From an uncultured Candidatus Saccharibacteria bacterium (GTDB lineage Bacteria > Patescibacteriota > Minisyncoccia > Phycocordibacterales > JACNGX01): 64,000 bases of DNA. The notes beneath the pieces were generated by a model. It searched no databases and was not told where the DNA came from. It worked only from the letters and a program-made list of their open reading frames with translations. How positions within the stretch are numbered: position 1 is the first letter of the stretch; every line of letters begins with the position of its first letter. Position numbers and translations under genes: made by a program. Where the stretch lies: NCBI GenBank assembly GCA_964621395.1, contig CAZULS010000001.1:135920-199919 (forward strand), written 5' to 3'. Shown here piece after piece: positions 3,592 to 8,380 of this stretch.

Positions 3592-3662
3592 GCGGGTATA
3601 GTTTAGTGGTAGAATATCTGCCTTCCAAGCAGAGGACGGGAGTTCGATTCTCCCTACCCGCA
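3592..3662 (+). tRNA. tRNA-Gly (anticodon UCC)
   Basis: GCGGGTA acceptor stem pairs with TACCCGC; D-loop AGTTTAGTGGTAGAA; anticodon stem TCTGC/GCAGA with loop CTTCCAA giving anticodon TCC; T-arm GGGAGTTCGATTCTCCC; discriminator A; no encoded CCA. Confidence 0.9.
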
Positions 3663-4308
3663 CAGCCAAAGCGAACCGCCATGAAGGGGCGGTTTTCGCT
3701 TTGAGCTGTGCGGGTAGAATGCCACACCTCATACGCATATGGAGTTTTTGGAAGTATGGAATAATGCAAGAAAGTAAAGATGTGTGGGGACAATATCTCT
3801 TGTGAGGTGTGGCATGTGGAGAATCGAACCAAACACAACTTTCACTGATTATTTTGATTGGTTAATTAAATGTTAGAGATTTTTCTTAACGAGAAGTAGC
3901 TATTTTCGGTTATAAGTGAAAGTGGTGTTCGGCGCCCAAGAGTACTTAGCGGATTGCGAATACTTGGAGCAATACGCTTAGTAACTCTGGGACGATTCTC
4001 CCTACCCGCACCACTTCGCCGAGCACCACTTCCGAAAGGAAGTGGTGCTCGGCTTCGCGGCGTCCGTCCTGCATAGCTTTAGCGACGTAGGGCAAGCACC
4101 ACCAACAGCGTGTATATCATATAATCGCGAAGTGGCCCTGCAGAGCCTCGGCGACGTGGGGCATGTAAGACTGTGAGCCGCGCCTGCCTGCCGGCAGGCA
4201 GGTCCAGCAGCACTTTATAAAATACGAGCTCTCAGGCGAAGTATTTTACTTAGTAACTCTGGGACGATTCTCCCAAAATAAAAGCCGGCTTCTGCCGGCT
4301 TCTGCCCT

Positions 4309-4686
4309 CTATTTTCTGGGAGCAGGTATAGGGTACAAGGCTGCTAATTCGGGAGAAAATTGTGCTGACGAGACTGCCACCCAACCCCCCTCTTCAATAA
4401 TGAATCCAAGGATAGGTTTCGTATCGCCTTCTTTTCTGAATATTCCCACAGCCAAGTCACCGTCTCTCACATCTCCGCCTTGCCAGGCTCGTGTGAAGAA
4501 ACCCTCGAATTCTTTTTCGTAACCAAGCTCACATACTTTTTCCCATATAGACACGGCATGCCATCCGTGTATGTGGTAAGCTTCTGAGGGATTATTCAAA
4601 TCTCGGATAAATTTAACCCCTAAATGTGCGATGGCTAACATTTTTACTATCCTCCTAGATTGATTTTGTGTTTTATTATCCATCAT
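4309..4686 (-). CDS. Hypothetical protein (accessory islet next to tRNA-Gly)
   Basis: 125-aa ORF with no recognisable motif; start may be internal (MLAIAHLG). Confidence 0.3.
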   Translation of the reverse strand: MMDNKTQNQSRRIVKMLAIAHLGVKFIRDLNNPSEAYHIHGWHAVSIWEKVCELGYEKEFEGFFTRAWQGGDVRDGDLAVGIFRKEGDTKPILGFIIEEGGWVAVSSAQFSPELAALYPIPAPRK

Positions 4687-4698
4687 TTTTCCCCTTCC

Positions 4699-5070
4699 TT
4701 AATTTTTTACATATTTCCGTTCGTTCAGAAAATGGTTGGCCGCTGCCCCAATAAGCCAAATTGAGGGAAGTAATATTGCTGCAATGGTGGCAGTGAGAAT
4801 AGATACATAGGATTTCTCTGTAGTGGTTACAGTTATAAATATTATTCCAGACGCAACTATGCCCACATAGCTGGCATTCCTGAGTTGTTTTAAAGTTCCC
4901 GTTTTCATTTTGGGCATGAATACGAGCGAAAAGAGCATTGTGATGATATAGAGTATGATGATTTCCATTTTCCCTCCGTTTTTGTTCAAGTACAAGTTAC
5001 ATAAAGAAATATTTCCTGCCCGCATAATTGCACAAGTTTGACATCTGTTCAAAGAAGTGCTGCAAAACAT
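4699..5070 (-). CDS. Hypothetical small membrane protein
   Basis: 123-aa ORF; several hydrophobic helices (IIILYIITMLFSLVF, IVASGIIFITV, ILTATIAAILLPSIWLIGAAA); 13-bp gap to the upstream ORF. Confidence 0.3.
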   Translation of the reverse strand: MFCSTSLNRCQTCAIMRAGNISLCNLYLNKNGGKMEIIILYIITMLFSLVFMPKMKTGTLKQLRNASYVGIVASGIIFITVTTTEKSYVSILTATIAAILLPSIWLIGAAANHFLNERKYVKN

Positions 5071-5124
5071 TCATTTTATAAACAAATAGTTGAAAAATAG
5101 CACAAAGAGATGTATGGTTGAAAT

Positions 5125-5967
5125 ATGCTTTCATTCTATAAGGGAATTGAAAATGATATCATTGCTCATCTCACAGAAGGGCCGCTTCCGGCAAAAACAC
5201 TGGTGAAAACGATTGTCGCTGAGCGAGGAGTGACCGACCAGGGCGTGTATAAGGCGCTGAAATATCTTATCGACGGAGAGGTGGTGACGAAAGAAAAGCG
5301 GTCTGTTGGTTTATCGCATGCATGGGTGGAGCGCCTTGTTGCTTTTGCTGACGATGTGGCTCGAAAATATGAAATGAGTGACATGAACGATTTTCTCCGC
5401 CTCAACGACAAAGAGAAAGTATCATATACGTTTACTGAATATTTTAAATCCGATATCCATTGGGCACATATCTTTTTTCTCCTTGCCAAGCGGACTGATG
5501 CGCCGATTTTTCTCCTTTCTCCACACAATTGGTTTATTATTGCGCGTCCGGATACCGAGTCGGTTTTGTATGATTGGGCTAATCGTTCAAAACGGCATAT
5601 GTACACGCTCACAAAAGGTAATACCGCACTTGATCGTGCTGCACAAGCTACAATTGAAAGTGATTTTGTGCACTTTTATCACGATGAAGAGATGAGCACG
5701 CCGCTCAATCGCTTTGTAACAGTTATCGGTGATTTTATTTTTGAATTCATCATTCCGGAACGCATTGCCGACACAATGGAAGAATATTATGCAACATACA
5801 CCGAGTTTAATGAGGAAAGTATCGGTGCATTCCGCGCGCTCAGCGATACAAAGTGGCCGGCAAAATTTACCGTTGAAAAAAATGCGAAAAAAGCACTTAA
5901 ACTCCGCCGGCGCATAGCCAAAGATTTTTTCATTCCGGCAGACGTAAAGGAGAAGTGGCTGACCTGA
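5125..5967 (+). CDS. Hypothetical protein, possible N-terminal winged-helix domain
   Basis: 280-aa ORF; the N-terminal approx 70 aa have a wHTH-like pattern; no catalytic motif recognised. Confidence 0.3.
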   Translation: MLSFYKGIENDIIAHLTEGPLPAKTLVKTIVAERGVTDQGVYKALKYLIDGEVVTKEKRSVGLSHAWVERLVAFADDVARKYEMSDMNDFLRLNDKEKVSYTFTEYFKSDIHWAHIFFLLAKRTDAPIFLLSPHNWFIIARPDTESVLYDWANRSKRHMYTLTKGNTALDRAAQATIESDFVHFYHDEEMSTPLNRFVTVIGDFIFEFIIPERIADTMEEYYATYTEFNEESIGAFRALSDTKWPAKFTVEKNAKKALKLRRRIAKDFFIPADVKEKWLT

Positions 5968-6034
5968 GTATATATGTCAAGAAGTTATACACAGTGTGCT
6001 TGACTTTTTTACATAGTTCGCATAAAATGTCATT

Positions 6035-6742
6035 ATGACCAAGAACACACATAAAGAATTGATGTCCACTATCAAATCGTTGCGGACCGAGAAAGGATTC
6101 TCGCAGGAGCAGACAGCTTCTGCTATCGGCGTTTCGCGCCCGACCTATACAGCCATTGAAGCAGGTAAGCAAAAACTTGATGTTGAAGAGGCGAAAAAGC
6201 TCGCGGTGTTTTTAGGTATTGATGTTGAAGATATCGTGTATGAAGATGTGTCGAATTTGGAAAAGTATAAACACATGATTCTTGCATATCTTCGCGCAAA
6301 GGTGTCGGACGATGGAAAGGTGACAAAGACGAAACTTGCCAAACTCTTGTATCTGGCTGATTTTGCGTGGTATTACGATCACATGAAAAGTATGAGTGGT
6401 ATGCGATATCGTCGTTTACAGTATGGTCCGGTACCAGACATGTTTTTTCGCGCACTCGCGGAGCTTGAAGACAGTGGGAAGATTGTTGTGGAACGGAAAG
6501 ATATGGAGGAAAGAGAAATGTTTCTTATTAGCGAATCTGAGAGCAACAAGAACGATCCTCTTGAGAAGGTGGGAACTGATGAGGTTTCCCTTATTAAGAG
6601 CATCGCAAAAAAGTGGAAAGATAAAAAAACGCAAGATATTGTGACTTTCACACATAATCAATTGCCATATCGGATTTGTCGTGATAATGAGATTATCCCT
6701 TATGAGCTCATCACACAGGAGGATTCCGACCTGGTGTATTAG
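6035..6742 (+). CDS. Antitoxin candidate: N-terminal XRE-family HTH + C-terminal Panacea (DUF4065/SocA-like) domain
   Basis: HTH: LRTEKGFSQEQTASAIGVSRPTYTAIEAGKQKL. Panacea-like core: TKLAKLLYLADFAWYYDHMKSMSGMRYRRLQYGPVPDMFFRAL (KLLYLAD ... Y.YGPV pattern). Downstream ORF starts 4 nt after its stop. Confidence 0.55.
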   Translation: MTKNTHKELMSTIKSLRTEKGFSQEQTASAIGVSRPTYTAIEAGKQKLDVEEAKKLAVFLGIDVEDIVYEDVSNLEKYKHMILAYLRAKVSDDGKVTKTKLAKLLYLADFAWYYDHMKSMSGMRYRRLQYGPVPDMFFRALAELEDSGKIVVERKDMEEREMFLISESESNKNDPLEKVGTDEVSLIKSIAKKWKDKKTQDIVTFTHNQLPYRICRDNEIIPYELITQEDSDLVY

Positions 6743-6745
6743 GGT

Positions 6746-7150
6746 ATGCCAGGGACATGTTCTGTTACAATTGAATCTTTTGCGGAAAGTCATTATGTGA
6801 AGACGTTTGAAAAGAGGCACAAGTGGCACTGGGATGTAACTCGTCGCGCCATTATCGCCGAGCTTGAACGTATTGAAGCACTTCTTCTCACCGACAAGGC
6901 GGATTGTATTTGTGAGCAGGATGGTGTTGCCATTGTAAAAGTGGATTTCAAGGTGGCGGGAACAAAAGGGTCAGCAAAAAAGTCCGGTAACAGATGTATT
7001 GTTGCGTGGCATAAAGATAATGAAAAAGTCTCTATACTTTTGTTATACGGAAAGACAAATTTGCCAGGTAGAGGGAAAAATGAGACCGCGGTATGGAAAA
7101 AGATGGTGAGAGAGCAGTATCCCGAATATAGATATTTGCTAAAGAGCTAG
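6746..7150 (+). CDS. Toxin candidate partnered with the Panacea-domain antitoxin; weak RelE/ParE-superfamily-like C-terminus
   Basis: 134 aa; operonic with 6035..6742 (4-nt gap); C-terminal KSGNRCIVAWHKDNEKVSILLLYGK resembles the RelE/ParE beta-strand core (g.yR.iy.v ... v.il.i.h); otherwise unassigned. Confidence 0.35.
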   Translation: MPGTCSVTIESFAESHYVKTFEKRHKWHWDVTRRAIIAELERIEALLLTDKADCICEQDGVAIVKVDFKVAGTKGSAKKSGNRCIVAWHKDNEKVSILLLYGKTNLPGRGKNETAVWKKMVREQYPEYRYLLKS

Positions 7151-7282
7151 CACGCTTATTTTGCTTGCACCCGACCCGCAAATATGCTTAAATAGTGGGC
7201 ACAACGAAAGAAAGGGGATTTTGGCGTCTGGCTGGACTCTTTTTATTTTCTTTTTTATTTCTGACTTTTGATTTTCAGTCCT

Positions 7283-7372
7283 ATGGGAACTTCGTTAAAG
7301 AACAAACGCAAAAGTGTGAAGCGTCGTCGTCGCAAGAAAATGCGTCGTCAGAATCGCTTTAAGAACAAATAA
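7283..7372 (+). CDS. 29-aa highly basic peptide, possible bS22-like ribosomal protein (MGTSLKNKRKSVKRRRRKKMRRQNRFKNK)
   Basis: Not in ORF track (<60 aa). ATG 7283, TAA 7370-7372, immediately followed by terminator AAACCGCC-CTCGAG-GGCGGTTT + T-run (7375-7410). Composition and length resemble the ~30-aa actinobacterial/bacteroidete bS22. Confidence 0.35.
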   Translation: MGTSLKNKRKSVKRRRRKKMRRQNRFKNK

Positions 7373-7374
7373 CG

Positions 7375-7410
7375 CAAAACCGCCCTCGAGGCGGTTTTGC
7401 GTTATTTGTT
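7375..7410 (+). terminator. Rho-independent terminator after the basic mini-ORF
   Basis: AAACCGCCCTCGAGGCGGTTT hairpin + TTGCGTTATTTGTT. Confidence 0.6.
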
Positions 7411-7551
7411 CAGGAATATGAAAAACGAAATATGGAATATGGTGTACGGCGTAGCTTCGCTCTGTCGCACGCTCGAAACTCGAAACTTGACTCTCGAAAC
7501 TCAACGAAAAAACTCCGCGGTGCGGAGTTTTTTCGTAAGTGGGTGATGCGT

Positions 7552-7824
7552 TTATTTCACCGCATCCTTGAGGGCTTTCGCCGCACGGAACTTCGGTACG
7601 CGCTGCGCGGGAACCTGAACGGCTTCACCGGTGCGCGGATTGCGTGCCGTGCGTGCCGCACGCATCTTTGCCGAGAAGATGCCGAGACCCGCGATGGACA
7701 CTTCGTCGCCCGCCTTCAGCGTGTCAACGATTGCATCAAGCATTGCGTCTACGGCGCGTTCAGCGTCCGCTTTGGTGCTGCCGGTTTTTTCCGCAACAAC
7801 ATCAACGATAGCTGCTTTATTCAT
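7552..7824 (-). CDS. hup: HU family DNA-binding protein
   Basis: 90 aa from MNKAAIVDVVAEKTGSTKADAERAVDAMLDAIV ... GLGIFSAKMRAARTARNPRTGEAVQVPAQRVPKFRAAKALKDAV; canonical HU/IHF arm motif RNPRTGE. The track ORF 7552..7896 has a 24-aa N-terminal over-extension. Confidence 0.85.
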   Translation of the reverse strand: MNKAAIVDVVAEKTGSTKADAERAVDAMLDAIVDTLKAGDEVSIAGLGIFSAKMRAARTARNPRTGEAVQVPAQRVPKFRAAKALKDAVK

Positions 7825-8380
7825 GGGATGTATTTCAAGAGAATATCTCTTGTACGTTAGTCGGGTAAAATCGACCTCGTCGAGTATATTTTCCAATCAT
7901 CCTTGCGGACGTTATTGAGAAATAGACTCCTTTCAATCCCGGAAACGGGTTCGCTTCCTATAAAACATTATAAAACAATGCTTTTTACGGGGACAATCTT
8001 GACATGTGAATAAGATGTTGCATGAGTTTTGGGGACAGTGTTGAAAATAAAGGATAAATTGCAAATAATTCGTTTTTTGTGTTTACGCAACGTATATTTT
8101 AGGCAGAAATTGTCCACCACACACCACTTTTTATGAGCGAGCGTCTTGCGGTAGTGTATTTCACGAAACGAGCATCTTTTGTATCGTTGGTTTGCGCATT
8201 GTGAAAAGATGGTGTGCGGTACGCGCTAAAACAAAAACGCCCTGACGGGTCTTTGAAAAGGAGGCATACCACACACCACTTTATATTGGACAACGTGAGA
8301 AGGTTTTTCGTGTATATGTAACATAAGTATTTTTATGGTTATTTGAGTGTATTAAAAGATGGTGTGCGGTACGCGCGATA

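Follow-up and report, generated by a model that had tools for sequence, protein, structure and literature searches.

In a 64,000-nucleotide (nt) stretch of contig CAZULS010000001.1 from an uncultured Candidatus Saccharibacteria bacterium (positions 135,920 to 199,919 of the forward strand; hereafter the window), we analysed two adjacent genes, here called panA and panT, and we conclude with good confidence that they form a chromosomal toxin-antitoxin (TA) module of type II and of the PanA/PanT kind, in which a Panacea-domain antitoxin is coupled to a RelE/HigB2-like toxin. This conclusion is supported by the identities of the domains, the predicted fold of PanT, the conservation of residues on which HigB2 depends, the strict pairing and co-divergence of the two genes, the layout of their promoter and their location in an inserted segment. 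Both open reading frames (ORFs), proposed as an antitoxin and a toxin candidate in a preliminary description of this DNA, were confirmed:

6035-6742, forward strand: panA, antitoxin candidate, 235 amino acids (aa), with an XRE-type helix-turn-helix (HTH) at about residues 6-66, a Panacea core at about 75-208 and a C-terminal tail at 210-235
6746-7150, forward strand: panT, toxin candidate with a predicted HigB2-like RelE/ParE fold, 134 aa, with a putative active site formed by K65/K69, R83, Y101 and K103

Pairing, co-divergence and distribution of panA and panT

Between the stop codon of panA (TAG, 6740-6742) and the ATG of panT at 6746 there is only GGT, which leaves the two genes 3 nt apart in a shared reading frame. 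By scanning one genome per species, we found relatives of panT in at least 175 genomes, and pairing was counted in the best 80 of these (loci in other genomes carry L numbers). An ORF encoding an HTH and a Panacea domain lies directly upstream of the panT homologue and on the same strand in 78 of the 80; in the remaining two loci fewer than 110 nt of contig lie ahead of the toxin gene, leaving no room for an upstream gene. The coupling of the two genes suggested in the preliminary description therefore holds in all 78 loci that have room for it. The gap between the panA and panT homologues ranges from -14 to +13 nt, excluding ORFs given too early a start by the mechanical caller, and an 11-nt overlap of the antitoxin and toxin genes is common; the flanking genes are entirely different from one locus to the next. 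The pairing persists in distant clades at 33-37% identity (L087, L170 and L172), and the pairwise identities of PanA and PanT are correlated (r = 0.77 over 74 pairs; none of 999 Mantel permutations reached this value). The strict pairing and the correlated identities indicate, at the level of the sequences, that panA and panT are inherited and diverge as a unit.

The best 80 carriers are labelled as Patescibacteria/Candidate Phyla Radiation (CPR) or are unclassified, with the exception of one contig binned as Methanosarcinales, and the named groups include Parcubacteria/Paceibacterota and the Nomura-, Taylor-, Adler-, Zambryski-, Kaiser-, Magasanik-, Uhr- and Komeilibacteria. The PanT family is not confined to the CPR, since one of its clades (455 clusters) occurs in metagenome-assembled genomes of Clostridiales/Oscillospiraceae. 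At L172 and L173 the genes translate only when UGA is read as glycine (code 25), which presumably points to Gracilibacteria or Absconditabacteria, and the HTH-Panacea partner is kept there; these two pairs sit among Abi_C, N6_Mtase/Eco57I and Mrr_cat genes. At L174, where a PanT relative of 29% identity occurs in a genome that uses UGA as a sense codon, the upstream gene encodes 119 aa with no detectable Panacea domain or family, and is possibly a swapped antitoxin. No relatives of panT were found in INPHARED phages, PLSDB plasmids or IMG/VR.

Family, predicted fold and putative active site of PanT

PanT has no match in Pfam, NCBIfam, PADLOC or PHROGs (E <= 0.01), and when family members were scanned singly they gave only scattered chance matches, including PF06296 (RelE; the HigB2 family) at an E-value of about 0.01 in 2 of 42 and 1 of 91 members. 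Since the gathering threshold of PF06296 was reached neither by PanT nor by any of these members, PanT appears to represent a family that is related to PF06296 and is not to be filed as a member of it, and neither Pfam nor NCBIfam has a model that covers this family. Among 5.8 billion proteins, relatives of PanT with 45-65% identity form 98 clusters, nearly all of 128-134 aa, and a profile search among 1.84 billion cluster representatives retrieved 224 at E <= 0.001; judged from these relatives, panT is a real, conserved gene.

The AlphaFold2 model of PanT, built with 42 homologues, has a predicted local distance difference test (pLDDT) score of 87.7 and a predicted template modelling (pTM) score of 0.83, and its topology runs from a beta-alpha-alpha unit through a four-stranded sheet to C-terminal helices. 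The arrangement by which the RelE fold is recognised, two N-terminal helices on an antiparallel sheet, is present in the predicted model, and a Foldseek search with the model agrees with a RelE/ParE fold. Of the checks that the preliminary description had proposed for the toxin candidate, the profile search gave no PF06296 match and structure prediction gave a RelE/ParE fold. HigB-2 chains are the only sequence matches of PanT in the PDB at E < 1, and the single-sequence match covers residues 69-113, in keeping with the weak RelE/ParE-like C-terminus noticed earlier. With the single sequence the HigB-2 match has an E-value of 0.44, and with a profile of 91 members one of 0.018; true remote homology to HigB2 would be expected to behave in this way.

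In the hidden Markov model (HMM) alignment from which the residue mapping is taken, itself a weak one, Arg51, Arg64, Tyr82 and Lys84 of VcHigB2 lie opposite K69, R83, Y101 and K103 of PanT. Alanine substitutions at these four positions of HigB2 lower its inhibition of translation 170- to 3000-fold (Hadzi et al., PMC5416850). We scored residue conservation in two sets, namely, 42 close relatives and 91 diverse members:

R83, opposite HigB2 Arg64: kept in 90 of the 91 diverse members
Y101, opposite HigB2 Tyr82: kept in 89 of the 91 diverse members
K103, opposite HigB2 Lys84: kept in 90 of the 91 diverse members
K69, opposite HigB2 Arg51: R or K in 39 of the 42 close relatives and in 45 of the 91 diverse members
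K65, on the strand of K69, no HigB2 counterpart assigned: kept in 90 of the 91 diverse members

PanT keeps three of the four residues on which HigB2 activity depends, and the loop between its strands is basic, as is the disordered one of HigB2. The C-terminal helix begins with Glu113-Thr114, a pair that is invariant in the family and has no counterpart in HigB2. Judged from the model and the alignment, PanT is most probably a divergent RelE/HigB2-type toxin acting as a ribosome-dependent mRNA endonuclease.

Domains and C-terminal tail of PanA

The product of panA matches Pfam HTH_3 over residues 13-66 (E = 4.6e-15; 55.8 bits against a curated cut-off of 23) and SocA_Panacea PF13274 over residues 101-211 (E = 3.4e-13; 50.9 bits against a curated cut-off of 25.7), the latter match spanning positions 1-111 of the 113 in the profile. 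The motifs KLLYLADFAWY and YGPVPD, quoted in the preliminary description, are present. Its assignment of an XRE HTH joined to a Panacea domain was therefore upheld, and the PF13274 (DUF4065) search it had suggested did find a match in the C-terminal half of the ORF. Homologues of PanA form 2192 clusters at E <= 1e-10; the best 120 of these have 64-72% identity, and all 120 combine an HTH with a Panacea domain according to precomputed PF13274 matches. PanA is more strongly conserved than the toxin.

In the AlphaFold model of PanA, the HTH (6-60) and the Panacea core (75-208) are predicted confidently, and the tail (210-235) has a pLDDT below 50. The sequence of this tail, LPYxLCRDNExIPYELITQEDPxxVY, is near-invariant in 74 orthologues and recognisable in distant pairs. 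Since a segment that is conserved yet disordered when alone is typical of the toxin-binding regions of type II antitoxins, the tail is, by analogy, a candidate neutralising element. On the other hand, it may simply be part of a Panacea domain wider than the Pfam model, since PHROG families of Panacea-like proteins align with PanA through residues 227-229. A Foldseek search of the PDB with the PanA model returned HTH domains only, and no solved Panacea structure was found by sequence or by fold; the PADLOC scan of PanA gave generic HTH matches and one weak DarG-like match, and nothing else.

According to two published studies, Panacea antitoxins neutralise their toxins through direct complex formation (PMC8832971; PMC10440598). 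The mutagenesis in the second study shows that a stand-alone Panacea can neutralise a toxin directly, and that in multi-domain PanAs other domains neutralise and HTH domains autoregulate (PMC10440598).

Promoter and candidate operators

The region upstream of panA contains the following elements:

6000-6028, forward strand: promoter-like site TTGACT-17 nt-TAAAAT, found by consensus scan with 10 of 12 positions matching, ending 6 nt before the ATG of panA
5976-5981 and 5999-6004: inverted repeat GTCAAG/CTTGAC, overlapping the -35 hexamer, a candidate HTH operator
6029-6039: short palindrome GTCAT-T-ATGAC, spanning the start codon of panA

There is no Shine-Dalgarno sequence ahead of panA. The -35/-10 layout is conserved upstream of panA elsewhere, as TTGACT followed by TTTTTTACA and then TATACT, and in 33 of 50 scorable loci the start codon lies 6-7 nt past the -10 box. 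Because the -10 box ends so close to the start codon, both in the window and in the relatives, the layout argues for a panA mRNA that is leaderless or nearly so.

The pattern GTCAR-N12-24-TTGAY, which includes the -35 hexamer, is present in 48 of 70 unique upstream regions of orthologues as compared with 0.6% of shuffled sequences. Furthermore, 31 of the 70 unique loci carry a long palindrome with arms of 14-21 nt, centred on the start codon of panA and with the -10 box inside it, whereas the best palindrome arm in shuffled upstream sequences averages about 7 nt. These loci are L008, L016, L033, L048, L063 and about 26 others (example arms TTTGCATATACTTGTTC..GAACAAGTATATGCAAA); the left arm holds the -10 box, the right arm holds codons 2-7, and the arms change symmetrically between lineages. 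An RNA hairpin at the start codon was considered and rejected, since the left arm, holding the -10 box, would not be transcribed; for the same reason a role as operators of a dimeric HTH is likelier for the symmetric elements than one as RNA structures. Autoregulation of panAT by PanA is what this arrangement of sites would suggest.

Relationship to known toxin-antitoxin systems

PanA and PanT were defined by Kurata et al. in 2022 (PMC8832971), and Dataset S1 of that study contains dozens of partner groups. The groups T14, T28 and T59 have HHpred or CDD matches to HigB-2, RelE, YoeB or ParE, and for T14 the HHpred run on the Methanobrevibacter representative gave HigB-2 at 99.7% (PMC8832971). 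The experimentally validated PanT toxins, as far as the consulted parts of this literature go, are of other kinds, namely, a membrane toxin, Doc, a toxSAS (PhRel2) and MqsR. T14 resembles the pair described here in that an HTH and Panacea antitoxin comes first and a small toxin directly after it. In Candidatus Saccharimonas aalborgensis and a TM7 genome, T14 has an HTH-PanA, the antitoxin-then-toxin order and the same 11-nt overlap as many of our loci, and its HigB-2 prediction agrees with our results on the fold and profile of PanT. Judged from architecture, taxonomy and predicted fold rather than from an alignment, the PanT family is very probably T14 or a sister family of it. What our analysis adds to the Dataset S1 entry is the mapping of HigB2 residues, the breadth of the family in Patescibacteria and the conserved leaderless promoter and operator layout. 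The preliminary description had also suggested that the partner of PanA could be a new toxin family; as a new kind of toxin this did not hold up, given the predicted RelE/ParE fold, HigB2 as the only solved relatives, the HigB2 residues that PanT keeps and the HigB-2-, RelE- and ParE-like Panacea partners already present in Dataset S1.

PanT differs from VcHigB2 (PF06296; PDB 5JA8, 5JA9, 5MJE and 8A0X) in failing to reach the PF06296 threshold, in being about 20 residues longer and in its family-specific Glu113-Thr114. HigB2 operons are toxin-first, and the HigA2 antitoxin that they encode neutralises through a disordered segment at its N-terminus, whereas panAT is antitoxin-first and its antitoxin is of the Panacea type. 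RelBE, YefM-YoeB and DinJ-YafQ are more distant, since their antitoxins (RelB, Phd/YefM and DinJ folds) are unrelated to an XRE-HTH joined to Panacea, and their toxins have no detectable sequence similarity to PanT.

Proposed mode of action and alternative explanations

From the evidence above we infer toxicity, neutralisation, RNA cleavage at the ribosome, autoregulation and a trigger, in the following form. The genes panA and panT would be co-transcribed from the sigma-70-like promoter as an mRNA that is leaderless or nearly so, and the start of panT 3 nt past the stop of panA suggests translational coupling. PanA would hold PanT inactive by direct binding, through its Panacea domain, its conserved C-terminal tail or both, and its XRE-HTH, as a dimer, would bind the inverted repeats at the promoter and repress the operon. 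Loss or inactivation of PanA, caused by proteolysis or by a cue sensed by Panacea, possibly phage infection, would free PanT. Free PanT would most likely enter the ribosomal A site and cleave mRNA under translation by means of R83, Y101 and K103 (with K65/K69), halting protein synthesis.

Several points weigh against this scheme. The sequence similarity of PanT to HigB2 is weak, its best E-value of 0.018 extending over about 40 residues, so that the assignment to RelE/HigB2 depends mainly on the predicted structure. The position of HigB2 Arg51 is basic in only about half of the diverse members (45 of 91), and the substrate or the chemistry could differ from that of HigB2, since the invariant Glu113-Thr114 has no counterpart there. 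The likely equivalent group T14 is marked 'notest' in Dataset S1 (PMC8832971). Finally, the long palindrome is absent from the window copy, where the N-terminus of PanA is rearranged and GTCAT-T-ATGAC is all that is kept, and autoregulation at this locus would accordingly depend on the 6-bp inverted repeat.

An alternative that we regard as unlikely is that PanT belongs to a distinct Panacea-dedicated clade of the RelE fold, marked by Glu113-Thr114 and by partly different basic residues, which is widespread in the reduced genomes of Patescibacteria and acts as a phage-triggered abortive-infection switch, with Panacea as the sensor, the conserved PanA tail, disordered when alone, as a plug for the toxin, and a target or chemistry different from that of RelE/HigB2.

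Rather improbable, in our estimate, is a module that serves mainly as an abortive-infection defence against phages, in which Panacea senses a phage cue and frees or activates a RelE-like effector, classical plasmid or islet addiction being secondary; this is compatible with the TA module proposed here and does not exclude it. A sensor role for Panacea is favoured by the NetFlax authors (PMC10440598). Several homologous pairs adjoin restriction-modification or Abi genes, namely, HsdR at L087, Abi_C, N6_Mtase and Mrr_cat at L172, and OLD-TOPRIM, MutH and a DNA methylase at L006, and the hotspot in which the window copy lies carries PemK and Fic genes as cargo in relatives (see below). However, no PADLOC model matches the toxin and those matching the antitoxin are the generic HTH and weak DarG-like ones, no relative was found in the phage and viral collections, and the neighbourhoods of the pairs are heterogeneous, with many housekeeping genes.

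That the module is a true TA system whose toxin is ParE-like, poisoning DNA gyrase and cleaving no mRNA, seems to us very unlikely. That PanT is non-toxic, either a catalytically dead partner of the RelE fold or a co-regulator of an HTH transcription factor, would suit its weak sequence similarity to known toxins, yet it is highly improbable, because the residues conserved in the 91 members match the HigB2 activity positions, which would be unexpected for a dead scaffold, and because two genes kept strictly in one order, overlapping or abutting, follow the usual TA pattern.

The islet at tRNA-Gly and its neighbouring genes

The panAT module is located in an inserted islet next to a tRNA gene, and the features of this locus, from left to right, are:

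3592-3663, forward strand: tRNA-Gly(tcc), anchor of the variable locus (ARAGORN; Rfam tRNA, 74.5 bits)
3977-4011, forward strand: copy A, a tRNA-3'-end-like fragment, in which 3993-4011 is identical to the last 19 nt of tRNA-Gly (3645-3663)
4249-4274, forward strand: copy B of the fragment, 26 nt identical to 3977-4002 and 272 nt apart from it, ending in ...CGATTCTCCC, the left junction of the islet
4275-7160: inserted islet of about 2.9 kb, containing three unassigned ORFs and panAT
4309-4686, reverse strand: islet ORF, 125 aa, unassigned
4699-5070, reverse strand: islet ORF, 123 aa (89 aa in gene calls), unassigned
5125-5967, forward strand: islet ORF, 280 aa, unassigned

The edges of the islet were recognised by comparison with the closest relatives, L090 and L091. 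On the right, homology to both ends at about 7160, just past the stop codon of panT; they share with the window HU together with its terminator, as well as a small basic ORF and the promoter of that ORF. On the left, homology to L090 resumes at 4274, the end of copy B, and L090 carries about 340 nt where the window has the islet. The CGATTCTCCC at the end of copy B also occurs in the 3' part of tRNA-Gly. The islet has a guanine-plus-cytosine content of 0.38-0.43 as compared with 0.45-0.55 in its flanks.

Around RNase Y homologues of 62-78% identity, the conserved order is RNase Y, HU, tRNA-Gly(tcc), tRNA-Pro, tRNA-Gly(gcc) and tRNA-Arg. Many relatives have only 56-160 nt between HU and tRNA-Gly(tcc); in the window this distance is 3.9 kb, and in other loci it reaches 7.9 kb. 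In relatives (L094-L168) the gap is a hotspot for unrelated cargo, for example:

L131, 15371-15763: PemK/MazF toxin
L154, 12779-13843: Fic/DOC protein
L102, 12090-14855: TrwB/HerA-like ATPase

Further cargo in relatives includes a GNAT protein and a fatty-acid desaturase. In the related genome L159, the panAT homologue is at a different position. No integrase was found in 3664-7160, and no repeat at the right end of the islet; because of this the locus is best described, as far as its sequence tells, as an islet at a tRNA-associated hotspot, and cannot be demonstrated to be an intact integrative element. The two copies of the tRNA fragment probably mark earlier integration or excision events. 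The preliminary description had placed the pair in a block of about 3.5 kb immediately downstream of tRNA-Gly. Insertion at a tRNA-Gly 3'-end fragment and the variability of the locus among relatives bear out the idea of an islet; however, the block 4309-7150 measures 2.8 kb, the figure of 3.5 kb being reached by counting from the end of the tRNA up to where the toxin gene stops, and about 610 nt of tRNA-fragment repeats intervene between the tRNA and the islet. Just to the right of copy A there is a perfect hairpin of 16 bp (4018-4053). An inverted T-arm-like 12-mer suggested a second tRNA at about 3760-3830 of the reverse strand, which we rejected because neither ARAGORN nor Rfam supports it.

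For the other three islet ORFs (125, 123 and 280 aa), neither the family libraries nor the PDB gave a significant match. The 280-aa protein shows a weak hint of an N-terminal MarR-like winged helix (E = 0.13), and a relative of 25% identity is located between RNase Y and HU in L165. The 123-aa ORF contains long hydrophobic stretches and may encode a small membrane protein.

To the right of the islet, two features lie between it and the HU gene:

7283-7372, forward strand: small, extremely basic ORF of 29 aa (MGTSLKNKRKSVKRRRRKKMRRQNRFKNK), with its own promoter-like site TTGCAC-18 nt-TAAATA at about 7166-7195
7363-7411: terminator with a perfect 22-bp stem, belonging to the small basic ORF

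The 29-aa ORF is found beside HU in L090, L091 and L121 with 86-100% amino-acid identity, and has no match in NCBIfam, Pfam or the PDB; we presume a resemblance to the small ribosomal protein bS22 of actinobacteria. The mechanically called HU ORF occupies 7552-7896 on the reverse strand (114 aa). Its homologues, such as the one in L090, start at Met25 (MNKAAIVD...), and by this comparison the true HU gene is probably 7552-7824, encoding 90 aa.

Significance

The findings on panAT leave the current picture of TA function unchanged. Genes of the PanT family are now annotated as 'hypothetical protein' because the family lacks a Pfam or NCBIfam model, and a family model would correct several hundred annotations. 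The conserved leaderless promoter, together with the long palindrome in many orthologues, offers a clean system for the study of autoregulation. If our reading is true, panAT would be a case, open to experiment, of a Panacea antitoxin that controls an mRNase of the RelE/HigB2 type, a pairing known from an untested entry of the published dataset, and it would represent a TA module common among the Patescibacteria, whose genomes are very small and in which few stress or defence systems have been characterised.

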